Below, one piece after another: positions 2,854-64,000 of a stretch of DNA of 64,000 nucleotides. The notes beneath the pieces were generated by a model, which saw only the letters and a list, made by a program, of their open reading frames with translations, made no database searches and had not been told where the DNA came from. The DNA comes from Candidatus Woesearchaeota archaeon. GTDB lineage: Archaea > Nanobdellota > Nanobdellia > Pacearchaeales > GW2011-AR1. Location: contig CAYJQB010000001.1 in the NCBI GenBank assembly GCA_964372205.1, positions 226,967 to 290,966 of the forward strand, given 5' to 3'. Within the stretch, counting starts at the first letter, position 1; every line of letters starts with the position of its first letter. The translations under genes and the position numbers were made by a program.

Positions 2854-3459
2854 TTAAATATTTGCGCTTTGATTGGCACCAAGTCTTCTTCCTGTTTTCA
2901 TATTCTCAATTATAATTCCAACTCTCTTCATCCTTGTTTCAGGCCTCTTCGCATGAAGTAGCCATCTGAAATACATTCTCTTTTGAGATGGGGGAAGTTT
3001 TTCAAAATTCTCCTTGGCTGTTTTATTCTTCTTTTTTTCAAGCTCCGCCTTCAAATCCTCTGGCATATCAGGATTCTTAGGTATTCCATGATCATGCGGT
3101 TTCTTAGTCAAACCGAGTTCAAACATCTCTTTTCCAAAATCAGACATTTTCCCTTGAGAAATCATCTCTCTAGCTCTTGCAAAAGTGTTATCGCTCCATC
3201 TGCTTGTCTTTTTTCTCTTAACAAATGTAACTCCATACTTTTCATCATCTATTCTTTTCAACGTTGTATCAATCCATCCAAAACATATTGCCTCATTCAT
3301 AGCAATACTTTGATTGAACATTCCTTTTCCAGTATGTTTTTTGTATCTTATTAGCAGAACTCTATCTTCTTTCAAGTGATTCTTTTCAAGCCATGCTCTC
3401 CACTGCTCAACATTTTCACAAGTGATTTGTTTTATTTTCTCTTTATTATTCATCATCAT
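2854..3459 (-). CDS. YdeI/OmpD-associated (OmdA-domain) family protein
   Basis: W..WL..NH at N-terminus, CFGWID motif, C-terminal LPPSQKRMYFRWLLHAKRPETRMKRV typical of the YdeI/OmdA family. Confidence 0.55.
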   Translation of the reverse strand: MMMNNKEKIKQITCENVEQWRAWLEKNHLKEDRVLLIRYKKHTGKGMFNQSIAMNEAICFGWIDTTLKRIDDEKYGVTFVKRKKTSRWSDNTFARAREMISQGKMSDFGKEMFELGLTKKPHDHGIPKNPDMPEDLKAELEKKKNKTAKENFEKLPPSQKRMYFRWLLHAKRPETRMKRVGIIIENMKTGRRLGANQSANI

Positions 3460-17776: not shown

Positions 17777-18246
17777 CTTTGTTTGTTCCAATCAGAATTA
17801 ATCTTAGTCAAGAACTCTTGCATTTTTGGATTGAAGTCTGCATTCCAGAATTTCACACTATCATCTATAAATTCAGCTTCTCTTTTCTTGTCTTTAGAAA
17901 GTCCAACCAAAGTATTCCTGCTTGCAAGTTCCATAGCCTTTCTTATTAGTCTCCATAGATCATTCCTTTCTTGTTGACTAAGAGATTTGCTTTCAGAATT
18001 CATTATCATGTCAGAAGGGTTTGGAAATATCAGATTATACATGTAAGAGTTCCAGTTCATCAAATTTTCAGAGATTCGCGAACAAATTTGTCTCGAGAGT
18101 GCGTCGCTAACAAAACCATCTTTCAAAATAGCATCTTTCACAAAAAATATTTTTTCAATATCTTGGAAACTTGATTTGAAGCCAAGCTCTTTCTGCATTT
18201 TTTCAAAACTCTTCTCAAACTCCTCTAAAAGTTCATGTTTGCTCAT
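17773..18246 (-). CDS. hypothetical protein
   Basis: 157-aa ORF, 4-nt overlap with downstream phosphoesterase gene start region. Confidence 0.4.
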   Translation of the reverse strand: MSKHELLEEFEKSFEKMQKELGFKSSFQDIEKIFFVKDAILKDGFVSDALSRQICSRISENLMNWNSYMYNLIFPNPSDMIMNSESKSLSQQERNDLWRLIRKAMELASRNTLVGLSKDKKREAEFIDDSVKFWNADFNPKMQEFLTKINSDWNKQS

Positions 18247-18851
18247 ATGTCTATTACAACACCTTTCTTTCCCACATTTATAACTCTTGTCTTGTCAATA
18301 AGCTCTTCCATCCCAGAGGCTTCATGTATATGCCCATGTAATAACAAATCTGGCTTAAATTTCTTTACTGCTTTTCTTATAGCTTCACTACCTTCTATCC
18401 CAGAGAATTCAGACTTACTTCCTGCAGGATGCATGTGAGTGAGCATTACTTTTTTCTCTATACCTTCAAGTCCCTTGTGTGCTTTTTCAAGTGTCTTCAT
18501 AAGTTCTCTTTCACTAACTCTTGAAAACGGTCCAACATCTGCCCCTCCTGCTCCGAAAAATCCTATCTTATCATACACTGCAGAATATCCATGTATATTT
18601 CTCATTCCATAAAAATTTGCAAGAAAGTCTGTCGTAGCAAAACTATCCCAGTTTCCAGGCAGAAGAAGAACTTTCTGATTTTTTTTCTTGAAAGGCTTTA
18701 GGAGGTTATCACTCTCTTTAAGCCCAGTTATATCTCCACAAAGAACTACTAAATCAACCCCTTCTTTTTCAGCTCTCTCTGATAAGCTCTTTGTTGCACG
18801 CGTATCTCCATGAATATCCGATGCAGCCAAGATTTTTAGTTTTCTTGTCAT
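18243..18851 (-). CDS. metallophosphoesterase (calcineurin-like, YfcE-type)
   Basis: DIHGD, LCGDITG, GNWD, HMHP and HGHIHE metal-binding motifs in canonical order. Confidence 0.75.
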   Translation of the reverse strand: MTRKLKILAASDIHGDTRATKSLSERAEKEGVDLVVLCGDITGLKESDNLLKPFKKKNQKVLLLPGNWDSFATTDFLANFYGMRNIHGYSAVYDKIGFFGAGGADVGPFSRVSERELMKTLEKAHKGLEGIEKKVMLTHMHPAGSKSEFSGIEGSEAIRKAVKKFKPDLLLHGHIHEASGMEELIDKTRVINVGKKGVVIDI

Positions 18852-20530: not shown

Positions 20531-20674
20531 TGGCCCCGAGGGGATTTGAACCCCCGACACCTGGATTTCTCCTTTCTGGCAATCTTAGTTTCTTTGATTT
20601 CCAGGGAAACTTTCTTTTCTAAAGAAAGTAAGCCTTAAGAGTCCAGTGCTCTAACCAGGCTGAGCTACGAGGCC
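20531..20674 (-). tRNA. tRNA-Lys (anticodon CTT) with 69-nt intron at canonical 37/38 position
   Basis: Hand-folded cloverleaf: acceptor GGCCTCG/CGGGGCC, D-stem GCTC/GAGC, anticodon stem CTGGA/TCCAG with loop CTCTTAA, T-arm GGGGG-TTCAAAT-CCCCT, discriminator A; anticodon 3' strand displaced by a 69-nt insert; BRE/TATA (tttaaaaa) ~28 nt upstream. Confidence 0.8.
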
Positions 20675-34035: not shown

Positions 34036-34281
34036 ATGGTAGAATATATCTTTACAGAAAAATTTGAGAAGGAATTTAAAAAAGCAGACAATTCTATTAA
34101 AGAAAAAGCACGAAAACAAATAAAAAAGATACTTGAAGACCCAGAAACAGGAAAGCCATTAAGATATGACCTAAAAGGCGAGAGAACAGTCTATGTCAAA
34201 CCATTTAGAATAATATATTCGTTCTCGAATAACACAATTTACTTCCTACGATTTGAACATCGCAGCGAAGTTTATGATTAA
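34036..34281 (+). CDS. RelE/ParE family toxin
   Basis: YRIIYSFSNNTIYFLRFEHRSEVY C-terminal RelE consensus; start abuts antitoxin stop. Confidence 0.7.
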   Translation: MVEYIFTEKFEKEFKKADNSIKEKARKQIKKILEDPETGKPLRYDLKGERTVYVKPFRIIYSFSNNTIYFLRFEHRSEVYD

Positions 34282-34293
34282 TAACTAATCCGT

Positions 34294-34352
34294 GGGACTC
34301 TGATCGATTAGCTTCTTTTCTCTGATCTCTAGAATTTTTAAGGATTGTCGAC
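34294..34352. repeat. intergenic repeat copy B (motif2 plus motif3 only)
   Basis: gggactctgatcgattagctt ... gaatttttaaggattgtcgac, about 75% identical to the corresponding part of copy A. Confidence 0.6.
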
Positions 34353-34367
34353 TACTTCCAAGAAGAG

Positions 34368-34955
34368 TCACTCAAATCTCACATTTATTACGTAAGCCTC
34401 TCCGAGAAACAAATCATAACCCTCCCTATTGAGGGTTTTTTCAAATTCTTTTATTTTTGTCTTTGGAGGAGAGTCGCAACGATCTAATCTCCTTTTTAAG
34501 GCCAACACTCCTCCTCGGTCTGCCCTTTGCTCATTATCCGAAATCGGAACGTTTGTGAATTCAAGATTAACCTTGCTTGAAGCATTATCCAGAACTTCTA
34601 ACATTGCTTTTTCTCCGACCAGAGCTTCTAGAGCGTGCGCCTCTTCATGACCTCTAACAAATTCTGTGTGAAGTCCATCCATTCCAGAGCGGTAGGAAGT
34701 TCTTAAGGTAAGGCTTATTAGCTCTTCATTATTCCCGGCTACTACGCGTGTGGCTATACATAAACCAGTTGTTTGCATGTCTGATAAAATATTGTCTATA
34801 GTTTTCAATACAGGTTTTAAAGAAGGTCTCTCTGCTTTCATTCTATAGAGAAAGTAATTTCCAACAGCTCCATCATCATAATAACGTACATCAACACCTC
34901 CAGGTACAGGGACTTCAATTCCTAATCTTTCAAGATAAATTGTGTTTGTCATCAT
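34368..34955 (-). CDS. hypothetical HExxH-motif protein (possible small metallopeptidase, ImmA/IrrE-like?)
   Basis: RGHEEAHALE... with a Glu ~20 residues downstream; local GC visibly higher than surroundings. Confidence 0.35.
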   Translation of the reverse strand: MMTNTIYLERLGIEVPVPGGVDVRYYDDGAVGNYFLYRMKAERPSLKPVLKTIDNILSDMQTTGLCIATRVVAGNNEELISLTLRTSYRSGMDGLHTEFVRGHEEAHALEALVGEKAMLEVLDNASSKVNLEFTNVPISDNEQRADRGGVLALKRRLDRCDSPPKTKIKEFEKTLNREGYDLFLGEAYVINVRFE

Positions 34956-35041
34956 TATTCTGTTCTTATCAAGAGGACGAGTTTAATATTCATATTTAAA
35001 ACTTTCTATGTTGTTACTATTATTAAGAAACAAAAATGGTA

Positions 35042-35151
35042 TTACGCCCAGACCAAACCGAACCCTATCATGCGATATTTTAGGGACGGTTTTATGTACA
35101 AGTTATATACAAGATTTGCTAGACTTTTAGGATTTTTAAGGATTGTCGAGA
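35042..35151. repeat. intergenic repeat copy C: degenerate copy of tRNA-Ser 3' end (ttacgcccagacca, one mismatch) plus motif3 ggatttttaaggattgtcgaga
   Basis: Aligned by eye with copy A and with the tRNA-Ser 3' end. Confidence 0.65.
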
Positions 35152-35164
35152 TAGAATTGATGGA

Positions 35165-35923
35165 TTAAATATACCCTTTCCATTCTTCCTCACAAGGAAT
35201 TTCAAATTTCTCAAACGGGGCCTTAGTCTTCAATGGGAAGAATAAAGACTGGTTTATGTATGCTCTTGAATCCAAATGTGCTAGCAAATTTGCTATAAAG
35301 TAAGCGAAACTTAGATTTGGGATCTCATATCCTTTAAGTGAAAATGGTTTATGTTCCCACCAAACATGCAGAAATTTTTCATCTCCTAAGGCGATGTTGC
35401 TAACTTTTTTAAAAATTGAACAATCAGTTATGTTAAAATAATCTTTTAAAGAGTCTCGAATTGTATTGATAGTGAGAAAGCATTCATAACAAAACAAGCC
35501 ATTGAATATTTTATCATTTTGTGCAACAGTTTCTATTTTTTTGCCATTTTGTTCGCATTTCTTAATAGTTTCTTTGAGATCTGAACCATTCCTAATTGAG
35601 GTCTTAACTTCGATTATAGCTCTGACTATATTCGCAGGAACAATTACAAAATCTCCTTCTGAGAATAAAACAGGTGAACGATCATCGTAGATTATTAGAT
35701 CTATTTGGTTGGTTAATTCTTTTTTTGGATTTATTACAAATCCTGTTCCAATTGAGAGATTTTTTGGCAAAAATCGAGAGATAACATTCTTTAATACAGC
35801 CTCTTTATATCTCCCATCTTCTCCCCAGTGAGCCTCTCCTATCAGACTCCTTACTCTATCCTTAACAGCAATTAATTCTTTGTTTATTGATTCATAAAAA
35901 TTTTTGAAATCTTGTTCTACCAT
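35165..35923 (-). CDS. predicted PD-(D/E)xK-fold nuclease-like protein
   Basis: QIDLIIYDD ... FVIVPANIVRAIIEVKTS gives the D...(D/E)xK arrangement with flanking hydrophobic strands; 252 aa; 7-nt overlap with upstream gene. Confidence 0.45.
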   Translation of the reverse strand: MVEQDFKNFYESINKELIAVKDRVRSLIGEAHWGEDGRYKEAVLKNVISRFLPKNLSIGTGFVINPKKELTNQIDLIIYDDRSPVLFSEGDFVIVPANIVRAIIEVKTSIRNGSDLKETIKKCEQNGKKIETVAQNDKIFNGLFCYECFLTINTIRDSLKDYFNITDCSIFKKVSNIALGDEKFLHVWWEHKPFSLKGYEIPNLSFAYFIANLLAHLDSRAYINQSLFFPLKTKAPFEKFEIPCEEEWKGYI

Positions 35924-36597
35924 TTTTCGTATTGTAAGTTTTCTATATTTACATCCATTTTTTCTTTTTTAATTATCATATCCCATACTATGTACTTTAC
36001 ATCTTTTACCTTAAAATCATAATTATATGGAATGATTATTTTTTGATTTGGAAGAATTTTTCCTTTTTGGACAGGAGCTGTATATAAAACAGTATCCCCT
36101 ATAGTGAAGATAACATCCAAGTTCACATATTCACTATAATCATCTCCTATATTTGATAACACTATCTCTCCCGAAGACGTATGAATTGTGTCATCTAATG
36201 TTTCCTCTAAAGAATTAAACAATGGAATGGATTTAGAAACACAAGTCCCAAATGTGCTTGAGCCACAACCCAATAACTGAGCTGAATAGGCGGCCAGAAT
36301 TATAGAATCTTTTGTTATGGTGATTGCATGATAATCTCCTCTTTCATTGATCTTGTAATATTCAATTTTTGCGCTATTAACTTCCAAAGGAGATGGATCT
36401 TCTCCATCTAAATATCTATCTCCATCAGTGTTTGGGTTTGTTAAGTTTGTTCCCAAATTGAGTTCTTCTTCATCACTTAATCCATCTTTGTCAGTGTCCA
36501 TTGGTTTGCTCACTAGAAAAATTATAGCTAACAAGGCTACCAAGATAATTACAATTAAGCATAGAATCCAGTGAAACAAATCACCCTTTCTATTCAT
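35917..36597 (-). CDS. membrane-anchored protein with thrombospondin-type-3-like Ca-binding repeats (likely start MNRKGDLFHW)
   Basis: TM helix ILCLIVIILVALLAIIFLV followed by DTDKDGLSDEEE and NPNTDGDRYLDGED acidic D-x-D-x-D-G repeats; ATGA start/stop overlap with the upstream small peptide gene. Confidence 0.5.
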   Translation of the reverse strand: MNRKGDLFHWILCLIVIILVALLAIIFLVSKPMDTDKDGLSDEEELNLGTNLTNPNTDGDRYLDGEDPSPLEVNSAKIEYYKINERGDYHAITITKDSIILAAYSAQLLGCGSSTFGTCVSKSIPLFNSLEETLDDTIHTSSGEIVLSNIGDDYSEYVNLDVIFTIGDTVLYTAPVQKGKILPNQKIIIPYNYDFKVKDVKYIVWDMIIKKEKMDVNIENLQYEKW

Positions 36598-36758
36598 TTT
36601 CCATATGCTCCAAAAACAACGGCTAGTACAATCAGTATTCCCATTATTCCGCCAAATAACCAACCAAACACACTTCCAAAAGCAGTGATTATAGCTGTTG
36701 CGGCTCCAGTGGACAAAACTATTATGGCCATTATTATTGTTATTATCAATTTTTCCAT
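36594..36758 (-). CDS. 54-aa Gly-rich double-TM peptide (GlsB/YeaQ/YmgE-like transglycosylase-associated family?)
   Basis: Hand-found ORF MEKLIITIIMAIIVLSTGAATAIITAFGSVFGWLFGGIMGILIVLAVVFGAYGK with GGAGGT Shine-Dalgarno-like sequence 8 nt upstream; translationally coupled to the next gene. Confidence 0.45.
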   Translation of the reverse strand: MEKLIITIIMAIIVLSTGAATAIITAFGSVFGWLFGGIMGILIVLAVVFGAYGK

Positions 36759-36940
36759 TTTACCTTACCTCCATTTTATTTCTAGTGAATAAGAAGTAGC
36801 CTCAGAGGATACCCTCCAGGGTTACCTCTTTTTCTTTCAAAACGTGGTTTGAGAGATATTTATATTTTTCTACTGGTTCTTTAACTAACTTGTATAAATT
36901 TTGTACATAAAAACAGCCCACGAGATGTTTATAACCAGAT

Positions 36941-38617
36941 CTAATTTTCTTGATAAATATTTTCAAAAGAATTGTTTGGATTTCTTCTCACCAAACGAAT
37001 ATAATCTGCTTTTATTTTTCTGGACATATTCTGAACAAATTGAGAATTTTTAAAGATGTTTTTATAGTCCAAAAAACCATCATTTTGTTCAATATATTCT
37101 TCAAAGTCGATATTTATATCTGGAGTAATTAGCTCCCAAACCTTCTTAATAGTTGCAACAAATTTGGCTTTGTTTGTTGTTATACACTCTAAAGGATCAT
37201 CAATAATTTGCTTTCCAAGGTTGTCTTCTCTCAATATCTCTGCTAATACGTGCGAGAAGAAAAAGATGGAAAGCCCGTAGTCTCTTAAATGTTCATTATT
37301 TAACAAACCTGCTTCGTTTTTAACAAGGTCATATACGACCTTCCCAAGATATATTTTATTCGCAGAGATATTTCTTGAGAAAATATGATTATATTCTTCT
37401 CCAAATAATTTTTGTTTAAGATGGGTATTATGGGGTTTACCTAAATAGAAGGCCATAATTACCTGAGCAGCAAAATCTTTTTCAATTATCTCAGCTTCCG
37501 AGTTCAATTCCTCTCCTCGCTTCCTTCTGTAAAGAATATTTCCTTCAAATGTACGTTCAAACTCAGTCTGAATGGTTTTTTGCACAGAATCGTTTGATTT
37601 TAAATCCTTCAAACTTATGGAGTTTTGATTGTTAGTATAGAAAGTTATTTTCTTTACAAGAGGAGAAGTAGGGTTCAATTTTATTATTTTAACAAGGATA
37701 AAAAGATTATTGCTCAATGAATCTCTATTTTCAAAAAATGTTAACATTGATTGACATCCGTTGATTAAGGAATATCCTCCAAGAGTAATTTTGTGATTTG
37801 TTAGGTCCTCAGAGAAGTCTCTACAAATTATTGTAATGCCATTATGATACATAAAAAAATTGTTATGTTCTGAAGTATCCAAGATAGTTTTTTTGATGGC
37901 TTTGTTTACCCTGGTATTCCCAACACCATATCTTACATTTTTATAAAAAAGAGTCCTATCTTGAATACCTTCAAGTTTGACTAACTCCTTTGCTTTAATT
38001 GCATAGGTCCTAACAAGAGTACCATCAGGGAGGTTATATTCTATTTTTGAGGGATTTTGGATTGAAAGGTCTTTTTGAGGGAAGTTTGTTTCTTGGTCTG
38101 CAAAATAAGTATACTTGTCAAATAAAATATTAGAGTCATAACCCTCAAAATCAGTTATTGTGTTTATATAATCTTTCGCAGGAGAATTAAATATTTTGTT
38201 TGTAGTAAAAATTAGAACTTTTTTGTAATGAGTCTTTTCAGACAAGTTATTTCTTTCTACAAGAGATTTTAGCTCTCTATTTGCATCACTGTTGAGTAGA
38301 TTATTTATAGAATCACTACCTTCAAACCAGATCCTTGTTCCAACAAAATTTCTTATGTCTCTATCTCCTTGATCTTGGTTGTTGTTAGGGCTGAATTTTG
38401 ATTGAAATAAGTAAATTGTTTCTTCATCATCATCTACATATAATCCATCAATTCCTTTATCATTTCTATGATCGCACACACTATCTATTGCTTCTAAAGG
38501 ATCAAGCCTAAAAAAATTTTCAAGAAACCATATCAAAAATGCAGAAGACTCTTCTCTACCCGAACTATATTCAGAGACCTCATCCCTCATCCGATTATAG
38601 AATTCAGATTGATTCAT
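36941..38617 (-). CDS. AIPR-family abortive-infection-like protein
   Basis: 558 aa; N-terminal FLIWFLENFFRLDPLEAIDSVCDHRNDKGIDGLYVDDDEETIYLFQSKFS resembles the Mrr-like DG-IDG...Q-K N-terminal nuclease module of AIPR proteins. Confidence 0.55.
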   Translation of the reverse strand: MNQSEFYNRMRDEVSEYSSGREESSAFLIWFLENFFRLDPLEAIDSVCDHRNDKGIDGLYVDDDEETIYLFQSKFSPNNNQDQGDRDIRNFVGTRIWFEGSDSINNLLNSDANRELKSLVERNNLSEKTHYKKVLIFTTNKIFNSPAKDYINTITDFEGYDSNILFDKYTYFADQETNFPQKDLSIQNPSKIEYNLPDGTLVRTYAIKAKELVKLEGIQDRTLFYKNVRYGVGNTRVNKAIKKTILDTSEHNNFFMYHNGITIICRDFSEDLTNHKITLGGYSLINGCQSMLTFFENRDSLSNNLFILVKIIKLNPTSPLVKKITFYTNNQNSISLKDLKSNDSVQKTIQTEFERTFEGNILYRRKRGEELNSEAEIIEKDFAAQVIMAFYLGKPHNTHLKQKLFGEEYNHIFSRNISANKIYLGKVVYDLVKNEAGLLNNEHLRDYGLSIFFFSHVLAEILREDNLGKQIIDDPLECITTNKAKFVATIKKVWELITPDINIDFEEYIEQNDGFLDYKNIFKNSQFVQNMSRKIKADYIRLVRRNPNNSFENIYQEN

Positions 38618-42805: not shown

Positions 42806-43489
42806 ATGTACATAATAGGGGTGGACGATGCCGGAAGAGGTCCTTTAATTGGTCCAATGGTTTTAGCAGGGGTTTTGATAAAAACAGCAGACCAGGATTT
42901 CTTGAAAGAATCAGGAGTAAAAGACTCCAAAATGCTCACTCAGGAAAAACGTCTTGCTCTCGATGAATTAATCAAATCAAAATCCCTTGGATATAAAGCA
43001 GTTCTAGTTCCTCCAATCGAAATCGATGATGCAGTTCTCTCAGGAAGAAACTTAAACAATCTGGAAGCAATAAAATGTGCTGAAGTAATAGACTCCTTGA
43101 ATACAGAAGACATGCATGATAAAGAGATAAAGGTTATTGTAGACTGTCCATCTCCAAACACAAAAGCTTGGCAAGCTGTTCTCATCTCACATATAAAATA
43201 TTCTAAAAATCTAAAGATAAAATGTGAGCATAAAGCAGATGCGAATCATCCGTGTGTTTCAGCAGCATCTGTTTTGGCAAAATTAGCAAGAGAAGAAGCT
43301 GTAGCAGAAATCAAATCTCAATATGGGAATATAGGTTCAGGTTATCTAACAGACCCAGTAACTCAAGCATTCATAAAAGAAAAAAGCGCAGAACTTGAAA
43401 ACTCAGGCATATTCAGAAAATCATGGTCTACTTGGACTAATCTTGTCGCAGAAAAACAACAGAAGAAACTATTCGGGATATTCTTCTAG
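42806..43489 (+). CDS. rnhB: ribonuclease HII
   Basis: IIGVDDAGRGPLIGPMV N-terminal catalytic motif and DxxS...D region of RNase HII. Confidence 0.8.
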   Translation: MYIIGVDDAGRGPLIGPMVLAGVLIKTADQDFLKESGVKDSKMLTQEKRLALDELIKSKSLGYKAVLVPPIEIDDAVLSGRNLNNLEAIKCAEVIDSLNTEDMHDKEIKVIVDCPSPNTKAWQAVLISHIKYSKNLKIKCEHKADANHPCVSAASVLAKLAREEAVAEIKSQYGNIGSGYLTDPVTQAFIKEKSAELENSGIFRKSWSTWTNLVAEKQQKKLFGIFF

Positions 43490-44341
43490 TTTTTTCATCG
43501 CTAGCTTTATTGATTTGGAATTAGACGAAAATACTTTCCAAGGATTTTTCTCAAGATATCTTGAAATGCTTTTTATTGTATATTTATCAAATTTAAAATC
43601 TGGTTTAAGCTCATTCCAAGAGAGAGGCATTGCGATTGTTCCAGGCTCTTTTGCTCTTAATGAATAAGGCACGACTTTTAGTTGAGCTCTTGCGTTTCTC
43701 AAATAATCAATGAAAACTCTCCCTTTTCTCTTATTTATTCTCTGTTCTGTTGTGAACTTGTCAGGATTTATTTTTTCAATTATCTCAGCTATTCTTCTCG
43801 AAAACTTCTTTGTTTCATTAAACGTGACGTCTCTCTTTATAGGCACAATTATGTGAAAGCCCTTCTGACCGGTTGATAACAAATAACTCTTTAATTCTAG
43901 GGAGTCAAGAATCTTTTTTACTGCATTCGTTGCCTGAACTGCATCAGAAAGTTTTTTCTCATTCGGAGGATCAATGTCCCATACAACAACCTCCGGATAA
44001 TCAATTTTGTCAATCCTTGACAGCCAATGATGAAAAATCAGAGTATCTTGATTAGCAAGGTATACTAAAGTGTCTTTATCATTGCATACAACATATTCAG
44101 TTCCATTGATTTTCTTTGTTTTAATCCACTTAGGAAAATACCCCCCAGCATTTTTCTGATAGAAACACATTTTTCCAGCACCTTCAACACATCTCTCAAG
44201 AGCAATAGGTCTATCTTTCACATAAGGAAGAATTTTGTTTGAAACTTTAATGTAATAATTAATTACATCTTTTTTGGTTATCTTTGATTTAGGATAGATA
44301 ATCTTGTCAGGATGAGTGATTTCTACTTTTCCGATTTTCAT
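43469..44341 (-). CDS. LigD-type polymerase/primase (PrimPol) domain protein, stand-alone
   Basis: ITHPDKIIYP...ITKKDVINYY...DRPIALERC...FYQK motifs as in the NHEJ LigD Pol domain. Confidence 0.65.
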   Translation of the reverse strand: MKIGKVEITHPDKIIYPKSKITKKDVINYYIKVSNKILPYVKDRPIALERCVEGAGKMCFYQKNAGGYFPKWIKTKKINGTEYVVCNDKDTLVYLANQDTLIFHHWLSRIDKIDYPEVVVWDIDPPNEKKLSDAVQATNAVKKILDSLELKSYLLSTGQKGFHIIVPIKRDVTFNETKKFSRRIAEIIEKINPDKFTTEQRINKRKGRVFIDYLRNARAQLKVVPYSLRAKEPGTIAMPLSWNELKPDFKFDKYTIKSISRYLEKNPWKVFSSNSKSIKLAMKKLEEYPE

Positions 44342-44913
44342 TTTTTCTTCTTTCCTCTTGCAATCTGCTCAAGAGTTTTTCCAGACTTTACAGACTTATT
44401 TTCTCCAGCAATCTTCTTATTTGCAAAATCATCTTTCATTTTGAATAACAGCCAGTTTTTGTTTTGTCCTTTAAATCTTATTAGTGCATAAGCTCCATTC
44501 AGTTTCTTCCCTTCAAGAAACACTTCTATCATCCCCATTTCATAAGACTTCTTCATGTCAATAGGAGTTTCTTTTTCTCCTTTGAGGTTTATGAATTTAC
44601 CTTTGTCCCAGAGCATAACAGTTCCAGCTCCGTAATTTCCTTCAGGAATAATGCCTTCAAAGTTTCCATAGTCCATTGGATGTTCCTCTGTTTCAACAGC
44701 GAGCCGTTTATCGGTAGGATTATTAGAAATTCCCTTAGGCACAGCCCAGGATTTTAGCGCTCCTTCTATTTCTAATCTAAAATCATAATGTAACTGTGAA
44801 GCATCATGTTTCTGAACAACAAATACTCCTTTCTTCCCAGAGCTTTTCTTCACTTTCCATTTCGGCTCAGGAGTCTTATCGAATTTCCTCTTTTTTTCAT
44901 ATACTGTTGGCAT
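44338..44913 (-). CDS. LigD-type 3'-phosphoesterase domain protein, stand-alone
   Basis: FVVQKHDASQLHYDFRLE...LKSWAVPKG...EHPMDYGNFEGIIPEGNYGAGTVMLWD matches LigD PE domain motifs; 4-nt overlap with Pol gene. Confidence 0.7.
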   Translation of the reverse strand: MPTVYEKKRKFDKTPEPKWKVKKSSGKKGVFVVQKHDASQLHYDFRLEIEGALKSWAVPKGISNNPTDKRLAVETEEHPMDYGNFEGIIPEGNYGAGTVMLWDKGKFINLKGEKETPIDMKKSYEMGMIEVFLEGKKLNGAYALIRFKGQNKNWLLFKMKDDFANKKIAGENKSVKSGKTLEQIARGKKKK

Positions 44914-45023
44914 CCTTTAAGGAGGAAAAAGGTATTAATTAATGTTTTCCAATAAAATATGTCTTATAACGACTAACAAAAGCCCTAAATAATCTTTAAA
45001 TAACTCATATCCCAATAGATATC

Positions 45024-47894
45024 ATGACTCACATAAAAAGGTTGGTGATACAAGGATTCAAGTCATTCGCTCCAAAGACAGAGATACACTTCGGCCAAGG
45101 TATAAACGTCATAGTTGGTCCAAATGGCTCTGGTAAAAGCAACATCTCAGACGCATTATGCTTTGTTCTCGGTAGATTGTCTATAAAGTCCATGAGAGCT
45201 GCAAAAGCAAGCAATCTCCTTTTCATGGGGAGCAAATACACAAAGCCTGCTAAAGAGGCAAGCGTTGAATTGGTATTTGATAACACTAATAAGACTTTTT
45301 CTTTTGAAGCTCCAGAAGTATCTCTTAAGAGAGTTGTCAGACACAACGGTCAGAGCATATACAAAATAAATGACGAAGTAAAAACAAGAGCTGAGATTGT
45401 AGAAACGCTTGCACATGCAGGAATAGATCCTCATGGTTTTAATCTAGTTCTTCAGGGCCAGATACAAGCAATTGTGAAAACTCACCCTGAAGAGAGAAGA
45501 AAAATAGTAGAAGAAGTTGCAGGAATCTCCATCTATGAAATGAGGAAGGAGAAGTCTATAAAAGAATTAGACAAAACAGAAGAAAGACTAAAAGAAATAT
45601 CTACAATATTAAGAGAAAGAACAGCATTTCTAAGAAATCTTGAAAAAGAAAGAAGTCAGGCTCTAAGATACAAAGAGTTAGAGACTACTATAAAGAGATG
45701 TAAAGCATCCATCCTAAGCAGAAGAATACAAGACAAACAGAAAGAAGTTGAGAATATCCAAAAAACAATTCTTGAAAAGACTGCTCAAAGAGACAAAATA
45801 AAGGAATCAATCAGACAAACACAGGATTCTATAGATGAGATGAATGAGAACATTTCCAAAATCAATAAACACATTCAAAGGTCCACAGGTTTGGAACAGG
45901 AAACTCTCAGGACACAGATATCAAACTTAAGAGCAGAGATAGAAGGCCTGAAAGTAAGGAAAGAGAATTTTGAGCATAGACAACAGGAAATAGAAAGAAG
46001 GATAGAAGAGATGCAAAAATCCATTCCAGAGAATGAATCAGAAATTCTTGAACTAAGGAAAGAATCTCCAATGGTTGCTAAAAAACAAGAAGAGCTGAAA
46101 AAGAAAAAAGAAGAACTTAAGCAGATAGAAGAGGAAAAGAAGCAAGTATACACATTAAGAACAGAATTAAACGCAGTAAAAGAGCGCATTAGAGACAAAG
46201 AACTCAATCTAGAAAGACTAAGCTCGCAATCAGATTCTATTCTAAAGCAGATAGAAGAATACTCTACAGATATAGAATATGAAACAAGAGAGTCATGTGA
46301 GAAAGAAATATCTTCCTTAAAGAAGTCTGTCCAAGATTACAAGATTAAGATTGAAGAGTTAGTAAAGTTAGAGTTAGAGCAGAACAGAAAAATAACCTCA
46401 TCAGAGACTACAATTGCTTCTTCAGAAAAGATAAAATCTCAAGTCCAGAGCATAGAAGTTTGCCCCCTTTGCCAGAACAAGATGACTCCAGATCATCTCT
46501 CACACGTTCTATCAGACTCAGATAGCAAGATAGAAGAATCAAGAAAAATAATCTCAATTTCAGAAGAAGAGATATCAAAGATATTTAACTCCAAGAAAGG
46601 TTTTCAGGAAGAGCTTCAAAAATTAGGTATGAGGCAATCCAAATTGGAAAACGAGCTCCATACTCATAGGATTATCACAGACAAAAAATCACAGATTAAA
46701 TCTTTACTAGAACAGGAAGAAAAGCTGAAAACAGAAATAAAGTCTCTTCAAGTAAAAAGAGATAATCTTCAATCCCATACATTAGACACTTCGAGAATAG
46801 ACGAGAAATATGGAGCCAAGATTATGGAGATAGAGGAAATTTCTGCAAGAACAACAGAAGACATCGACAAGACTTTGATGTACAAAGAAAGAGAGCTTGA
46901 AAGAATGAAAGAAGTCATCAAGCTAAGCAAGCGTGATTTAGGTGAGATGGAGCAGGAAGTCACAGAGATAGCAGAAACAATAGAATCTAAGATTGAAACT
47001 TTGGAGAAGAAAGAAGAAGAGGATGCAGAGCTTACAGCTAAGTTCAAGAAGCTTTTTGCAGAGAGAGACAAGCTTCAGGAGATAATCCAGGAGAAGAGTT
47101 ACGAGTTAAGTAGTTCTCAAACTTCAGCAGCACAGATTGAAGAGCAAGTCAACTATTTGAAGGTTGGAAATGCAAAATTAAGCGCCGAAAGAGAAGCAAT
47201 AGAGATGGAGTTAAAAGAGTTTTCAGGAATTGAGCTGATAAAATCGCCACTTTCCTTTCTTGATGAAAAATTGAAGAAATCTCAGGAAGCTATAAGCACA
47301 ATAGGTCCTACAAACATGAGGGCTTTAGAAGTATATGATGGAGTAAAGGAAGAATATGACAAAGTCTATGAAAAAGTGCAAACAATAGAAAATGAAAAAA
47401 ATGAGATTCTAAGAATTATAGAAGAGATAGACAAGAAAAAAAAGAAATCATTCATGAAGACTTTCAACGGGATAAGTGATCTCTTCAGTAGCAACTTCTC
47501 TAAACTTTCTTCAAAAGGTCAGGCTTTCTTGGAGTTAGAGGACAAAGAGGACATTTTCAACGGAGGAGTGAATATAGTAGTAAAACTCGCAAAGGGAAAA
47601 TATTTCGATGTCACTTCTCTATCTGGAGGAGAACAGACTCTTATCGCAATATCTCTCCTATTCGCCATTCAAGAATTCAGGCCATATCACTTTTATGTTC
47701 TAGATGAGATAGATGCAGCCCTAGACAAAAGAAACTCAGAAAGGTTGTCTGCATTACTTAGAAAATATATGAAAGATGGTCAGTATATTGTAATTACTCA
47801 TAATGATGCTCTCATAATGGACTCTGATATCCTATACGGAGTTAGCATGCATGAGGGTGTTTCTAAAATCTTAAGCCTCAAGCTAAGTGAGTAA
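45024..47894 (+). CDS. smc: SMC-family ATPase (short, 956 aa) with mid-coil CPLC motif
   Basis: N-terminal GFKSF...GPNGSGKSN Walker A and VLGRLSIKSMRA SMC signature, C-terminal LSGGEQTLIAISLLFAI ABC signature and YVLDEIDAALD D-loop; long coiled coils; VCPLCQ at the midpoint. Confidence 0.7.
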   Translation: MTHIKRLVIQGFKSFAPKTEIHFGQGINVIVGPNGSGKSNISDALCFVLGRLSIKSMRAAKASNLLFMGSKYTKPAKEASVELVFDNTNKTFSFEAPEVSLKRVVRHNGQSIYKINDEVKTRAEIVETLAHAGIDPHGFNLVLQGQIQAIVKTHPEERRKIVEEVAGISIYEMRKEKSIKELDKTEERLKEISTILRERTAFLRNLEKERSQALRYKELETTIKRCKASILSRRIQDKQKEVENIQKTILEKTAQRDKIKESIRQTQDSIDEMNENISKINKHIQRSTGLEQETLRTQISNLRAEIEGLKVRKENFEHRQQEIERRIEEMQKSIPENESEILELRKESPMVAKKQEELKKKKEELKQIEEEKKQVYTLRTELNAVKERIRDKELNLERLSSQSDSILKQIEEYSTDIEYETRESCEKEISSLKKSVQDYKIKIEELVKLELEQNRKITSSETTIASSEKIKSQVQSIEVCPLCQNKMTPDHLSHVLSDSDSKIEESRKIISISEEEISKIFNSKKGFQEELQKLGMRQSKLENELHTHRIITDKKSQIKSLLEQEEKLKTEIKSLQVKRDNLQSHTLDTSRIDEKYGAKIMEIEEISARTTEDIDKTLMYKERELERMKEVIKLSKRDLGEMEQEVTEIAETIESKIETLEKKEEEDAELTAKFKKLFAERDKLQEIIQEKSYELSSSQTSAAQIEEQVNYLKVGNAKLSAEREAIEMELKEFSGIELIKSPLSFLDEKLKKSQEAISTIGPTNMRALEVYDGVKEEYDKVYEKVQTIENEKNEILRIIEEIDKKKKKSFMKTFNGISDLFSSNFSKLSSKGQAFLELEDKEDIFNGGVNIVVKLAKGKYFDVTSLSGGEQTLIAISLLFAIQEFRPYHFYVLDEIDAALDKRNSERLSALLRKYMKDGQYIVITHNDALIMDSDILYGVSMHEGVSKILSLKLSE

Positions 47895-47936: not shown

Positions 47937-49184
47937 TTAGTAATAACTTTCTCCGTAGTTTTCAGCTTTTTCAGGTTTCCTTGTTAAAAGCACGATAAGC
48001 ACTACAAGAAGAACTACAAAGACTATTGCTAGGATAACAGTCAATAAAACGACTGCGTTTCCTGTAACAGCTGAGCTTCTTCCTTCCACATTAGCTGTGA
48101 ATTCAGCGCTATCTATAAGTTGTTCCTCAGAGTACACGTTAACAACGAATCCGTATTCACCATCTTCGGAAGCCATAGCTGTTATCTGTACGCTCTTACT
48201 TGAGCCTGCAGGAACTGCCACAACGCTTTCGTCGAAGTCAACACTCAATCCGCTATCAGCGTCAACAACAAGGTCATAGACCATGATGCTGTTTCCGGCA
48301 TTGACAAGTGTCAAGGTGTAAGTTTGTTCTTCACCAGCGGCAAATGTCTTGCTTTTGCTTGAGGATACAACTCTATTGTCACTAGCAGAGCTCTTAATGA
48401 AGACCTTCTTACTTGCGAAAGTAGAGGAGTCGTCATTGAATGCTTCTAGCTCAAGGGTATAAAGACCTTCTGCAACGTTTGAAGGAATTCCAACCAGAAC
48501 TCTTCTCATTACAGCGTCTTCTGAGTTATCTCCATCAATATTGTCCTTGGCATAAAGATCTCCATAGAAAACAGTTCTGCTTATTCCAAGTTCAGCTATT
48601 GTAGCTCTCAAATAAACGTCTTCTGCTTTGTGGATTCCTCTATTCTTCACGACAACATCTACTGCAAGATTGTCTCCAGCTTTTACTTCATTCAAAGCAT
48701 CAAGAGGAGCAATCTCCAATAGGTAGGAGTCCCTTTGAACTACTAAGTCAATTCTTGCTTCGTCACCAACGCCATTTTCTCCTTCAACGGTAACCACCAA
48801 TGTAAAGGCTTCCTGTAAAGGATCTAGGTCGGATGGAACTCTCATTGTAAGAGTATTGTGGTAGGTTCTTCCACCATACGCTACAAACTCTTGTGTCTCA
48901 ACAAGTGTGCCACTCTCTCCCAAAATTCTTGCGGTGACTCTTGCAGTCCAGATTGGACTTATATTGTCATCAATTGTAACTACAGTGCTGATTTCAAGTT
49001 CATCGCCAGCGAAAACGCCAGTGACTCTATCATCTTCAGCTGTAAGTTGCCCATTGACACCAATTCTATTGAAGTCTGCCCAGTCATCTAATGCCAAGGC
49101 ACCCGGAACTACAAGAATTGCTAGTGCAAAAAGTGCAACAAGTGTAACCAAAATATTTTTGGCTCTCATTTTTGTTGTGTCCAT
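47937..49184 (-). CDS. cell-surface protein with signal peptide and C-terminal TM anchor
   Basis: N-terminal signal/TM, beta-rich repeats, C-terminal VVLLTVILAIVFVVLLVVLIVLLTRK anchor. Confidence 0.5.
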   Translation of the reverse strand: MDTTKMRAKNILVTLVALFALAILVVPGALALDDWADFNRIGVNGQLTAEDDRVTGVFAGDELEISTVVTIDDNISPIWTARVTARILGESGTLVETQEFVAYGGRTYHNTLTMRVPSDLDPLQEAFTLVVTVEGENGVGDEARIDLVVQRDSYLLEIAPLDALNEVKAGDNLAVDVVVKNRGIHKAEDVYLRATIAELGISRTVFYGDLYAKDNIDGDNSEDAVMRRVLVGIPSNVAEGLYTLELEAFNDDSSTFASKKVFIKSSASDNRVVSSSKSKTFAAGEEQTYTLTLVNAGNSIMVYDLVVDADSGLSVDFDESVVAVPAGSSKSVQITAMASEDGEYGFVVNVYSEEQLIDSAEFTANVEGRSSAVTGNAVVLLTVILAIVFVVLLVVLIVLLTRKPEKAENYGESYY

Positions 49185-59629: not shown

Positions 59630-60529
59630 TTAAAGATTACTATGGGCTTGAGGGGGAATAAAGTGCTTCCTCCTCCCTTTTCCATTTTTGATATTCCAGT
59701 ACTTTCTGAACTCGCAAAGTGCCCCCTCGATATTAGTTATAGAAAGATATGGATAATTTGAAAATGCTTTCTCATACGCAATGCTTTCCCATTTTTCTGA
59801 AAGAGAATCTTTTTGCATCTCATATAGCTCATACAGCCTATGCTTAACTTCTTTATTGCTTAATTTCTTTCCATAGATTATTTCTAATCCCCACTTTGCT
59901 CCAGGCCCAACGTTCACAAAGTCGTTATCATTCCAGCCCTGCCTAAAGAATCCTAAGTAAGTCAAATCCGTCCATATTTCACACGCAAGGAACGGACCAA
60001 CCATCGGAATTCTTTTTAATATCTCGAAAGACTCTTCAGGAGTGCTACTTTGGTCTATTCTTTTTATTATTTCACTAGAATTGTTGGAAAGAATTTTCAA
60101 ATTGTTTAGGACACTAACATGTTTATCTTCACCTTTTTTCCCTGAAATAATGTAAGCATTGTTGAACAAAGGTTTACCCAATTTTTTCATCCTATCGAAC
60201 TTTTTTAGGATTTCAGCTTTAACTCCATCGTCAAACTTCTTAAACGGCTCTATCTCCAATTCCTCATACAATCCGTGTCTGTTAAAAAATCTGTAAAATA
60301 CAACATTGAGAAGAATTGATTTCCTGTCACTCAATTTGTTTAGTTTTTTCAATAAATAAATGGTGCACTTGTCAAGCTCCCTATACATATTGATTACTTT
60401 ATATTTCTGTAGAATTTTATCCTCAGTCCAAGGGGAACGTTCTTTTAGAACAAATCTCTTATGCCAAATTAAATGTCTTCTGTAAATGAAATCAAAAAAC
60501 TCTTGTTTTAAATTTTCTCGCACAGGCAT
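59630..60529 (-). CDS. 299-aa protein resembling the alpha-glutamyl/putrescinyl thymine pyrophosphorylase (aGPT-Pplase) / DNA base hypermodification family; assignment tentative
   Basis: N-terminal FFDFIYRRHLIWHKRF...PWTEDKILQKYKVINMYRELDKCT resembles the conserved FxxERHxI...PWTxDxIL..Y.F.NVYRExD block of that family (from memory); start codon overlaps the nusA stop. Confidence 0.4.
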   Translation of the reverse strand: MPVRENLKQEFFDFIYRRHLIWHKRFVLKERSPWTEDKILQKYKVINMYRELDKCTIYLLKKLNKLSDRKSILLNVVFYRFFNRHGLYEELEIEPFKKFDDGVKAEILKKFDRMKKLGKPLFNNAYIISGKKGEDKHVSVLNNLKILSNNSSEIIKRIDQSSTPEESFEILKRIPMVGPFLACEIWTDLTYLGFFRQGWNDNDFVNVGPGAKWGLEIIYGKKLSNKEVKHRLYELYEMQKDSLSEKWESIAYEKAFSNYPYLSITNIEGALCEFRKYWNIKNGKGRRKHFIPPQAHSNL

Positions 60530-61246: not shown

Positions 61247-64000
61247 TTATTTTTTATGCTCAAGAAGTTTTTTATCGACGAGAGGACCAGTGACTCTTAC
61301 TAATAATCCAGGTAATCCAGTTCCAATAGGTACAGGTTGATTTAACATTATGTTTTCAATAACTGATGCAAGTTCATCTCTCTTGCCTTGGATTGTTGCG
61401 TTAACAAATTCCTTATCAGGAGTTTCAAAGGCTGCTCTAGCAAAAACGCTTGATTTTTCCGAGACAATTCCCATTCTAGTTACTCCTTTGACAACTCCGC
61501 TTGAAGTCATAGCATCAGCAATAAGGTCAAGATGTCTTATGTTGATGTCAAGACCTTGGCTGTCAATGACCTTTTTCAATTCACCAACTATTGTTTGTCT
61601 TGCAGCTTCAATCCCAAGAACTTCAGCAGTTTCATGTATGTCATTAGAATAGATTTTATTCTTGTCAACACCCTTTACTTCAACTACTTCCTTCAGATTA
61701 GTTCCTGCAGTAAGTACAACATAATCCTTATCTCTCTTAGAAACAACCACTTGAGAGATATTCTTAACTCCAGAGATTATTGTCTTCTTAAGTTTCTCTT
61801 TTATCTTGAACATTTCCCTAAATGACTTCTCTCCAAGACCGACGATTATTTTGTTGGTGTCTTTTGCTTTAGCCTCGAATCCTTTATCATTCAGTCTATC
61901 TACAACTTTCTGGATTCCTGAATGGATATTTCTTAGTCCATTGTTGTCCAATTCAATCTCAATTTTCTTTCCAGAAAAGTCAATGCTGATTTCTTTGGAT
62001 ATTTCTTCGATAGAAACTTCTTTTATCTTTTCAGCAATTACTCTTGCGTCTTTTTCATTATTCGCTTCTTTCTCAAGATATATCTCCATCAATGGAGTGG
62101 AAGGTTTCTTCCTTGCATCAAATATCTCAATAAGTCTTGGTAATCCGAGTGTAATCTGCATTTCTGCGACTCCGGCAGAGTGGAATACGTTCAAAACCAT
62201 CTGTGTTGAAGCTTCTCCAAAGCTTTGCGCAGTGACAACTCCTACAGATTCACCAGGAGCTACTTGCTTGTTTAAGTGAAGGCTCGCAACATCCAATCCA
62301 TCTCCTCCATATAGATACTGGATTATATTTCCAGATGCATCTCTGACAGTTCCATCATATTCAGCTCTCAAATCTTGAAGAGCGCTTACAAGTCTTCTGT
62401 AAAGATAACCAGATTTAGGAGTTCTAAGTGCGGTATCCATAAGTGAGTCTCTTCCAGTTATTGCCCCAAAGAAGAACTCTGTAGGTTTCAATCCCTCAAA
62501 GAATGACGACTTAATGAATCCTCTAGCTTCTGGGCCTATATCTTTTTTATGGAAGAATGAAAGAGTTCTGTCAGTATAACCGAAGCTGATTCTCTTATTC
62601 CAGAGTATCTGTTGTCCGACACAACATCCAATCTGTGTTATGTTAAGCATGCTACCTTTAGCTCCAGGAGTAATCATTTTGTTGATATTAGCCTCTGCAG
62701 GGAATGTTGATTTTACAACTCTTCCAATCTCAGATCTGACTTCGTTAAGTACTTGTGATATTCTCAACTCCCTAGTTTCTTCAATACTCTTTCCAGGCAC
62801 AGGAGTAAGCTTTCCATTCTCAGCTTCTTTTATTATCTCTTGAGTCTTTTTCTCAGCCTCCGAGATTATTTCCTTTGTTGTGTCTTTAACCTTAGGAGCA
62901 ACATTCAAGTCTTGTGCTGAAAGAGTGTATCCTACTCTTGAGATGTGTGTAGTTCCTAGAGTGAACGCCTTCTTTATCGCTAGAACAGTTGCATCCTTTC
63001 CAAACTCTTTGTCCAGATGTTTTATCATTACACCATCTTCCACTCCAAAAGTTTTTTCTCCAGTTAAGTCATTAGGAATCTTTATCTCCGTACCCTTCGG
63101 CAAAATCTCTACAAAGATATCTTTTCCAGAAACTGTTTTTTTCTTAATTCCACTTACAATTCCAGCAGAATACAATAGTTGTTGCGCATATTCTCTGCTG
63201 TAATCTTCCCTACCTAGAAGATACAATCCTGTAACTGCATCAGTAATACATCCAACAAGGGCAGTATTATTCTTTGAAGATATGATATTCTGGTTTATTT
63301 CCAAAAGCTTTATTGCCTCAGCTCTTGCTTCTTCTGTCTGAGGGGAGTGGATGTTCAATTCATCTCCGTCAAAGTCAGCGTTGTAAGGGAAAGTCACAGC
63401 AGGATGTATTCTAAAAGTCCTGTGAGGAAGAATTCTAGCTCGGTGAGCCATGAGACTTTGTTTGTGAAGTGAAGGGTGTCTGTTCAGTAAGACAATGTCT
63501 CCATCTTGCAGATGTCTTTCAATTTTGTATCCTGGGACTATCTCATTGCACAAATCTTCTTTCAACTCATCAGTTATCTTCTTTTTCTTTCCATCAGGTC
63601 TAACAACATAGTTTGCTCCAGGATGTTCACTTCCTTTTCTTATTAGCTTCTTCATCCTTTCCATGTTCATGCTTGTGACATTTTCAGCCACAGTGATTAT
63701 TTCTGCTATTTCGAGAGGGATTCCAATCTCATCAATATCAAGGTAAGGGTCAGGAGAACCTACAGTTCTTCCAGAGAAGTTGACTCTTTTTCCAGCAAGA
63801 TTTTTTCTGATTCTTCCTTCTTTTCCTTTAATCCTTTCAGTTATAGTCTTCAAAGGCTGGCCAGATCTATGTCTAGCAGGAGGAATTCTCGAAGTGTTAT
63901 TATCAAAATATGTTGTTACGTGATACTGAAGCAAGTCCCATAAGTCCTCAATGATAACTTCAGGAGCTCCTGCGTTAAGATTCTCCCATAATCTTTGATT
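61247..64000 (-). CDS. rpoA: DNA-directed RNA polymerase largest subunit, apparently fused A'/A'' (5' end outside window)
   Basis: Catalytic NADFDGDE, bridge-helix region (TALRTPKSGYLYRRLV) and trigger-loop region (AQSFGEASTQMVLNVFHSAGV) in one uninterrupted 895+ aa frame that continues past position 64000. Confidence 0.85.
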   Translation of the reverse strand, partial: NQRLWENLNAGAPEVIIEDLWDLLQYHVTTYFDNNTSRIPPARHRSGQPLKTITERIKGKEGRIRKNLAGKRVNFSGRTVGSPDPYLDIDEIGIPLEIAEIITVAENVTSMNMERMKKLIRKGSEHPGANYVVRPDGKKKKITDELKEDLCNEIVPGYKIERHLQDGDIVLLNRHPSLHKQSLMAHRARILPHRTFRIHPAVTFPYNADFDGDELNIHSPQTEEARAEAIKLLEINQNIISSKNNTALVGCITDAVTGLYLLGREDYSREYAQQLLYSAGIVSGIKKKTVSGKDIFVEILPKGTEIKIPNDLTGEKTFGVEDGVMIKHLDKEFGKDATVLAIKKAFTLGTTHISRVGYTLSAQDLNVAPKVKDTTKEIISEAEKKTQEIIKEAENGKLTPVPGKSIEETRELRISQVLNEVRSEIGRVVKSTFPAEANINKMITPGAKGSMLNITQIGCCVGQQILWNKRISFGYTDRTLSFFHKKDIGPEARGFIKSSFFEGLKPTEFFFGAITGRDSLMDTALRTPKSGYLYRRLVSALQDLRAEYDGTVRDASGNIIQYLYGGDGLDVASLHLNKQVAPGESVGVVTAQSFGEASTQMVLNVFHSAGVAEMQITLGLPRLIEIFDARKKPSTPLMEIYLEKEANNEKDARVIAEKIKEVSIEEISKEISIDFSGKKIEIELDNNGLRNIHSGIQKVVDRLNDKGFEAKAKDTNKIIVGLGEKSFREMFKIKEKLKKTIISGVKNISQVVVSKRDKDYVVLTAGTNLKEVVEVKGVDKNKIYSNDIHETAEVLGIEAARQTIVGELKKVIDSQGLDINIRHLDLIADAMTSSGVVKGVTRMGIVSEKSSVFARAAFETPDKEFVNATIQGKRDELASVIENIMLNQPVPIGTGLPGLLVRVTGPLVDKKLLEHKK

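Follow-up and report, generated by a model that had tools for sequence, protein, structure and literature searches.

The analyzed window, a 64-kb stretch of contig CAYJQB010000001.1 with ~36% GC, is a typical DPANN archaeal segment that contains archaeal genes for ribosomal proteins, elongation factors (EF), and RNA polymerase, as well as tRNA genes. [quoted passage not shown] The product matches the Pfam family SMC_N over residues 3–947 (E = 3e-49). A TATA-like box (TTTAAATA, 44995–45002, same strand), read from the sequence ~22–29 nt upstream of the ATG, may serve as an archaeal promoter yielding a transcript with a short leader or none.

The N-terminal half of the head (residues 1–168, 45024–45527), delimited by motif positions, invariance among 51 homologues, and secondary structure, carries GFKSF (residues 11–15), the Walker A motif GPNGSGKS (residues 32–39, nt 45117–45140), VLGRLSIKSMRA (residues 48–59), and the Q-loop LQGQ (residues 143–146), the Walker A and Q-loop residues being invariant in the 51 homologues. 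It is followed by the N-terminal coiled-coil arm (residues 169–474, 45528–46445) with helix breaks at residues 346–353 and 415–421, the zinc-hook loop (residues 475–488, 46446–46487), and the C-terminal coiled-coil arm (residues 489 to ~760, 46488–47303), which is broken at residues 607–612 and 732–742. The C-terminal half of the head (residues ~761–956, 47304–47891), assigned by its motifs, invariant columns, and matches to the C-terminal heads of Smc proteins in PDB, contains LSGGEQTLIAISLLFAI (residues 866–882) with the signature LSGGE (residues 866–870, nt 47619–47633), the Walker B/D-loop FYVLDEIDAALD (residues 890–901, nt 47691–47726) with YVLDEIDAALD (residues 891–901), and the H-loop ITHND (residues 924–928). 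All of these parts lie on the forward strand. The loop holds VCPLCQ at residues 479–484, with CPLC at residues 480–483 (nt 46461–46472). The motifs quoted in the initial annotation, which was made from the letters of the window, were all recovered, and the CxxC pair that it placed at the midpoint of the coiled coil lies at 50.2–50.5% of the 956 residues. The protein contains five cysteines, and ~0.026 CxxC motifs would be expected by chance.

Head identity and absence of the hinge

Among the NCBIfam models, TIGR02169 (SMC_prok_A) and TIGR02168 scored 543.4 and 526.1 bits, respectively, whereas the best Rad50 model reached 113.8 bits, the model of archaea-specific SMC-related proteins (ASRPs) 122.5 bits, and RecN 34 bits. 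In PDB, head constructs of Pyrococcus Smc were matched with E-values between 1.6e-102 (5xei) and 4e-81, and Rad50 heads with ~1e-15 (4e-15). The catalytic ATPase motifs (Walker A, Q-loop, LSGGE, Walker B/D-loop, and H-loop) are invariant in the alignment of 51 homologues. Given these invariant positions and the SMC-type scores, the head is, as judged from sequence, that of a bona fide condensin-type SMC, and neither a Rad50 head nor a strongly diverged SMC-like head. This agrees with the SMC-type head motifs recognized at first sight. The accompanying suggestion of a divergent SMC-like protein with a hook-type apex was borne out for the hook and not for the divergence, since the head is conserved and the protein is a positional and phylogenetic orthologue of archaeal SMC. 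Both SMC scores are below the equivalog cut-offs (729.4 bits for TIGR02169 and 567.35 bits for TIGR02168), a shortfall that is consistent with a missing hinge; a hook in place of that domain would explain it, together with the merely generic annotation of hook-type proteins.

Assignment to the ASRPs (ClsN/Sph) was also considered, because proteins of that family bear hooks (PMC9389158) and their model NF045487 matches the window protein with E = 2e-35. The best stretch of this match, however, covers residues 298–624 and is restricted to the coiled coil and the hook, the 122.5 bits compare with a cut-off of 300, and the model is 593 positions long against 956 residues, whereas the head attains 543 bits with the SMC model and groups within SMC. 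We therefore regard an ASRP identity as very improbable.

The initial annotation had noted no obvious hinge, and the profile searches agree: SMC_hinge (PF06470) has no match in the protein even at E ≤ 1, residues 430–560 included, and is absent from the 25 families listed for 51 members of the protein family, any unlisted family having matched at most one member. The hinge Gly motif is likewise not present in the window protein. The best TIGR02169 stretch places residues 3–475 on model positions 1–469 of 1165, and BLAST comparison with the nearest hinge-type homologues aligned residues 1–466 and 624–954 with residues 1–493 and 808–1140 of P0148, respectively, and residues 557–954 with residues 752–1159 of P0153. 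The N-terminal arm is thus collinear with both the SMC model and P0148, and ~170–200 residues of the two hinge-type proteins have no counterpart between residue 466 and residues 557–624 of the window protein.

The full-length AlphaFold2 model, which was built from the 51-sequence alignment (mean pLDDT 75; 81–94 in the apex blocks), predicts helices at residues 169–345, 354–414, and 422–474, the loop at residues 475–488, and further helices at residues 489–606, 613–731, and 743–760, after which the C-terminal head follows. Its arms are two helical strands of ~270–300 residues that fold back on each other. Structure prediction of the monomer and of the apex alone (residues ~410–559, pLDDT 94) gave the same order of helix, 14-residue loop with CPLC, and helix, and a globular hinge does not fit into the apex so predicted. 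What shortens the protein is the absence of a hinge of ~200 residues and not a loss of arm length; of its first description as a short SMC, the length of 956 residues holds, and the arms are essentially full length, the shortness being due to hinge loss only.

The apex as a zinc hook and its distribution

The Pfam model Rad50_zn_hook (PF04423) matches the window protein at residues 468–508 (E = 0.0022) and 17 of 51 family members at E ≤ 0.01 (best 7.7e-5). A single-sequence query with the apex found no match in PDB, and a profile was needed. Such a profile (150 columns, 26 diverse members), searched against all PDB sequences, retrieved the Rad50 hooks of P. furiosus (6ZFF, 1.9e-11; 1L8D, 7.4e-11) and the human RAD50 hook (5GOX, 6.4e-6). 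As a control against an effect of coiled-coil composition, a 32-column core profile around the motif was used, and it placed 1L8D (1.2e-4) and 6ZFF (1.7e-4) at ranks 1 and 2 of 177,635 PDB sequences, with a bias of 0.1. In the motif alignment, D-iCPlCkrkiTkeH of the family (D-x-CPLC-x-x-K-I-T-x-E-H) corresponds to K-CPVCGRELTDEH of the P. furiosus Rad50 hook. Comparison of the apex model with 350,542 PDB chains by Foldseek put Rad50 hooks at ranks 1–4 and 6, with 1L8D, 5GOX, and 6ZFF on top. In sequence and predicted fold, the apex is homologous to the zinc hook of archaeal Rad50, as its resemblance to a Rad50 hook had first suggested.

A different use of the cysteine pair would be an intramolecular metal site with H491 and H494 (a C2H2-like knuckle) or a stabilizer of the hairpin, with dimerization located elsewhere or not occurring. 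Close relatives all keep C480, C483, and H491, and 97% of them keep H494, with the spacing C-x2-C-x7-H-x2-H that such a site would have. The wider family, however, keeps only C, P, and C; in it, Y, E, or A may stand in place of H491, and H494 is unconserved; moreover, a His at +8 is also found in the P. furiosus Rad50 hook (CPVCGRELTDEH), in which zinc is held by four cysteines from two chains (PDB 1L8D). An intramolecular site is accordingly given a slim chance. As a separate observation, C425 (46296–46298) is invariant and H548 (46665–46667) at least 90% conserved among close relatives, neither being conserved in the wider family. These two residues are located one on each arm, close to the break in the helix at residues 415–421, and could form a second contact or metal site.

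A sequence search of 5.8 billion proteins yielded 7,929 scored hits, of which the best 120 (57–69% identity) were examined. These proteins are 946–1082 residues long, apart from a few longer ones with inteins; none has a precomputed hinge domain, and CP[LIMT]C is present in all 120. Among them, the named ones are annotated as SMC of Nanoarchaeota, Pacearchaeota, or Nanoarchaeia, with one intein-bearing protein annotated as a LAGLIDADG homing endonuclease, and most are nameless. When 1.84 billion cluster representatives were searched exhaustively with HMMER, 149 of the best 150 sequences were new (P0121–P0269). Two main, mutually exclusive classes were observed in these 149 representatives: a hook class with CPxC-T-x-E-H and no hinge Gly motif, and a hinge class with GDLxExSGAMxGG and no apical CxxC; a minority has neither motif. 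Hook-type sequences extend, at full length, down to 38% identity, and CPxC is conserved in all of the diverse hook-type representatives to that level. Across the 26 diverse members of the apex profile, the only invariant apex residues are Cys, Pro, and Cys. An internal insertion (≥5 residues) within residues 1–956 was found in one of 115 close relatives, after residue 312, and none near the apex, the other length variation being confined to a C-terminal tail past the head. With a single internal indel among 115 relatives, arm length is under tight constraint.

At least 265 confirmed stretches match the hook pattern CPLC[QK][NTS][KT][MI]T in a DNA-pattern scan of contigs from one genome per GTDB species, the pattern being strict and the count a lower bound. 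The 80 listed records of these 265 are mostly labeled Pacearchaeota, Woesearchaeota, Nanoarchaeota, or Nanoarchaeia, and the others comprise one Parvarchaeum record, one Dojkabacteria record, and a few called just "archaeon". The breadth of this distribution bears on whether the gene might be an assembly or annotation artefact, or a gene decaying after hinge loss. Apart from the shortness of the protein and its TIGR02169 score below the cut-off, nothing fits such an origin. The same architecture recurs in thousands of independently assembled sequences, with invariant catalytic residues and tightly conserved arm length, and the artefact or decay explanation is effectively refuted by this widespread architecture and the conserved residues, so that next to no probability remains for it.

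Several other features of the family were observed. Acidic, apparently disordered C-terminal tails of 10–126 residues occur in 71 of 115 close homologues and not in the window protein. Six hook-type proteins (P0020, P0026, P0052, P0054, P0115, and P0129) are ~1480–1575 residues long owing to a LAGLIDADG insertion of ~525 residues (PF14528, PF14890); this intein lies in the Walker A region (query residue ~36 aligns to ~561), and several hinge-type SMCs of ~1660–1800 residues look similar. The SMC-head proteins P0140, P0141, P0144, P0146, P0212, P0247, and P0262 (~750–840 residues) have neither the hinge Gly motif nor an apical CxxC. Four of the motif-less proteins belong to the hook clade described below and lack about the apical third of the arms, P0140 having no counterpart to residues 439–622; such proteins may represent a third, unexplained arm ending of SMC. 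Hinge-bearing SMCs of ~800–850 residues, with the hinge motif at residues ~470–500 (P0208, P0214, P0222, P0225, P0235, and P0238, and further P0251, P0252, P0254, P0257, and P0268), are natural "mini-SMCs" with much shortened arms. The hook-SMC locus L067 (JAFCCB010000021.1) is binned as "Candidatus Dojkabacteria bacterium" of the Candidate Phyla Radiation (CPR), which is probably a binning error rather than a transfer.

Phylogenetic position, gene neighborhood, and partner proteins

In a head-only neighbor-joining tree (91 representatives, 357 columns), all 23 hook-type sequences fall into one clade nested among hinge-type SMCs, together with the four short motif-less sequences, and the hook clade was monophyletic in 60 of 60 bootstraps. 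To our knowledge, the hinge is universal in SMCs across all three domains of life, and the hook is thus the derived state. The neighborhood of hook-type genes was compared in 79 loaded loci (80 loci of the GTDB scan plus earlier ones). The most frequent neighbor encodes a ~409-residue secreted or membrane protein (69/79), followed by apurinic/apyrimidinic (AP) endonuclease family 2 (55/79), RNase HII (54/79), DUF7557 (47/79), DnaG (42/79), and LigD phosphoesterase (25/79). The nearest hinge-type relative, the PF06470-positive P0148, is encoded in the same arrangement of RNase HII, SMC, and surface protein. The simplest reading is a single in-place swap of the hinge for a hook within the resident smc gene.

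In the window, smc is divergent from a pair of reverse-strand genes for a LigD phosphoesterase (191 aa, 44338–44913) and a stand-alone LigD Prim-Pol (290 aa, 43469–44341), and convergent with a reverse-strand gene (47937–49184) for a surface protein of 415 aa with a signal peptide and a C-terminal transmembrane helix. With no co-directional neighbor on either side, smc has no evident operon partner. No ligase domain or Ku was found near the LigD pair (43469–44913). The surface protein has no Pfam match, with a faint NPCBM_assoc match in its relatives; it is the most conserved neighbor of smc and also stands beside the hinge-type orthologue.

The repair and replication genes among the conserved neighbors (RNase HII, AP endonuclease family 2, LigD phosphoesterase, and DnaG), the divergent LigD phosphoesterase and Prim-Pol genes of the window, and the homology of the apex to the archaeal Rad50 hook could point to a Rad50-like repair or tethering ATPase, i.e., an SMC scaffold that, in DPANN archaea with their reduced genomes, took over, or merged with, Rad50 end tethering and whose hook bridges complexes. 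These neighbors, however, are on different strands and not operonic, and the same synteny around the hinge-type orthologue indicates that the neighborhood is not hook-specific. Furthermore, the scores place the head far closer to SMC than to Rad50, the best Rad50 model scoring 113.8 bits against a cut-off of 700, and a Mre11-like nuclease was not found in the window, the related loci, or the conserved neighbors, the sole metallophosphoesterase of the window being a 202-residue ORF (18243–18851). A Rad50-like function is accordingly assigned a low probability; partial Rad50-like tethering added to the SMC role is the least excluded of the rival explanations, and is disfavored.

The neighborhood also bears on a role in defense against phages or plasmids, in which the protein would be the SMC-like component of a system such as Lamassu (LmuB) or Wadjet (JetC). 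Weak PADLOC matches were obtained to mad3 (179 bits, C-terminal head), LmuB (86 bits), and JetC (32 bits). These are far below the SMC scores, no defense partner genes are adjacent, and the neighborhood conserved in the 79 loci is of the housekeeping kind, which makes a defense function exceedingly unlikely.

A Pfam scan of all ORFs of at least 70 aa found no ScpA, ScpB, Mre11, or Rad50 in the 64-kb window; where the initial annotation saw no adjacent ScpA/ScpB or Mre11, the Pfam and ScpA searches extend this statement to the entire window. Matches to Serglycin in the Pfam scan stemmed from the GS linkers that joined the ORFs into concatenated queries and were discarded. A hidden Markov model (HMM) of the ScpA N-terminal domain was built from the PDB sequences 6ivh, 3w6j, 3zgx, and 4i98, which were retrieved with a B. 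subtilis ScpA sequence (itself checked, with E = 9e-49 against 3zgx_C); the outcome of this search is given below. The archaeal ScpA motif DPW[DN]I, searched as a regular expression in six frames, is absent from the window and the loci, and clustering of 84 sequences (83 loci and a 23-kb window segment) revealed no kleisin-like conserved neighbor.

Elsewhere in the window, a tRNA of 144 nt (20531–20674, reverse strand) was detected by Rfam and not by ARAGORN and is probably an intron-containing archaeal tRNA. An ORF (59630–60529, reverse strand) that strongly matches PF18723, the helical domain of 5-hmdU DNA kinase (2.8e-49), lies between the NusA-KH and S12 genes, within the conserved rpo/NusA/S12/S7/EF-2 cluster. 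The RNA polymerase subunit A ORF (61247–63934, reverse strand) has Rpb1 domains 2–5, with A' and A'' apparently fused, and no more of domain 1 than its final 45 positions; the rest of the N-terminus appears to be encoded separately or past the window edge. The products (1320 and 1403 aa) of two giant surface-protein genes in tandem (3456–7418 and 7445–11656, reverse strand) are almost identical over their first ~215 residues, which include a poly-Gly run, and then diverge, with Laminin_G_3 in one and a beta-helix in the other. Likely defense or mobile genes occupy 34036–38617, namely AIPR abortive infection (36941–38617, reverse strand), DUF6602 (35165–35923, reverse strand), and a ParE toxin (34036–34281, forward strand).

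Proposed role and comparison with known systems

We consider it likely that the window protein serves a DPANN archaeon from the Nanoarchaeota/Pacearchaeota group as its chromosomal SMC of the condensin type, and that in its lineage a zinc hook of the Rad50 type took the place of a globular hinge of ~200 residues on a single occasion; the organism group was taken from the labels of homologues. Two protomers, contributing two cysteines each, would hold one tetrahedral Zn2+, as in Rad50, and so form a permanent dimer at the apex. The arms of ~45 nm (about 300 residues at 0.15 nm each) would then align, ATP would drive head engagement and release, and the complex would entrap or extrude chromosomal DNA like Smc–ScpA(B), with a kleisin presumed to bridge the heads. 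In this scheme, the metal-bridged hairpin would do the only indispensable job of the hinge, which is stable dimerization at a fixed arm length. Archaeal Smc complexes are often binary Smc–ScpA, according to a survey whose methods cover RefSeq assemblies only and whose text names no DPANN lineage (PMC7055376). B. subtilis Smc with its hinge swapped for the P. furiosus Rad50 hook is reported to allow normal growth on nutrient medium (PMC5344682), and fission yeast Rad50 works with the MukB hinge in place of its hook, hook and hinge being interchangeable (PMC6969161). These two experiments make the hook-SMC architecture functionally plausible.

Several points weigh against this interpretation. 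Zinc binding, dimerization, and any DNA activity of the hook SMC are properties that we infer, and the kleisin-bridged ring is an assumption. The ScpA N-domain HMM gave nothing below E = 1 in the window, which covers about 10% of the genome, and in 86 related loci (~1.3 Mb); ScpB, Rad50, or a loader was likewise not found in the window or these 86 loci. A second, hinge-bearing SMC may be encoded elsewhere in the genome. With the single sequence, Rad50_zn_hook scores 18.2 bits and so misses its gathering cut-off (24.3), Foldseek yields weak E-values from 8e-3 upward, which is what helical hairpins would be expected to give, and the AlphaFold2 confidence is low in the head, probably because the alignment comprised 51 sequences only. 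Finally, the phylogeny was obtained by neighbor joining on 357 head columns only.

A bolder version of the condensin-type reading, which we think rather unlikely, makes the hook SMC the only SMC in an order-level archaeal radiation, hinge-free, possibly without a canonical kleisin, and with a hook that also links complexes via zinc. If so, a single protein of a reduced genome would join condensin-like DNA organization with Rad50-like tethering of DNA molecules, and the hinge would be shown by nature to be dispensable for SMC loading and translocation.

The role of the hinge beyond dimerization (in DNA binding, as a DNA entry gate, and in communication with the heads during loop extrusion) has long been debated, and the argument for its dispensability has so far drawn mainly on a single engineered chimera in B. 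subtilis and on the converse exchange in yeast Rad50. The replacement has now been found to have arisen naturally in an archaeal clade that is large, ancient, and diverse, as observed in at least 265 stretches from one genome per species and thousands of metagenomic sequences, with the hook kept under strong selection, the SMC head conserved, and the arm length nearly fixed. The clade lends itself to tests, in a natural setting, of how an SMC functions without a hinge, it is a case of modules exchanged within the SMC superfamily, across its two main branches, and a compact SMC of 956 residues, presumably homodimeric and metal-bridged, is attractive for structural and single-molecule work. Surveys of archaeal SMCs class DPANN sequences as "canonical aSMC" (PMC8665677). 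In the literature searched, which left most subscription journals outside, only engineered swaps and hook-bearing ASRPs were found and no natural zinc-hook SMC is described; the window protein is the natural counterpart of a domain swap previously reported only as a laboratory construct.

Among known systems, the Smc of Smc–ScpA(B) (TIGR02169/TIGR02168; Pyrococcus 5xei, 4i99) shares with the window protein the head motifs, the neck, the length and collinearity of the arms, the genomic slot, and the phylogenetic position, whereas the window protein has a 14-residue CPxC loop instead of the globular hinge PF06470 and scores under the equivalog cut-off. The hook of Rad50/SbcC (PF04423; 1L8D, 6ZFF, 5GOX) is nearly the same residue for residue in its apex motif and shares the helix–loop–helix, but in the window protein it is carried by an SMC head rather than a Rad50 head, with no Mre11 nearby. 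The ASRPs (ClsN/coalescin, Sph1/2; PMC9389158) are likewise archaeal SMC-superfamily proteins with an apical zinc hook; they are, however, ~600 residues long, have divergent heads, and form a separate family, whereas the window protein is a true SMC. The same design is found in the Smc(Zh) chimera engineered in B. subtilis (Buermann et al., 2017; PMC5344682), where the head and arms of an SMC are likewise joined to a Rad50-type hook from an archaeon. The function of Smc(Zh) and of B. subtilis Smc is reported to depend on arm length, and the close hook family is nearly free of arm indels. Unlike Smc(Zh), the window protein has arisen in nature; its design is ancient and has become fixed in a large clade of archaea, and its role in vivo is predicted from sequence.

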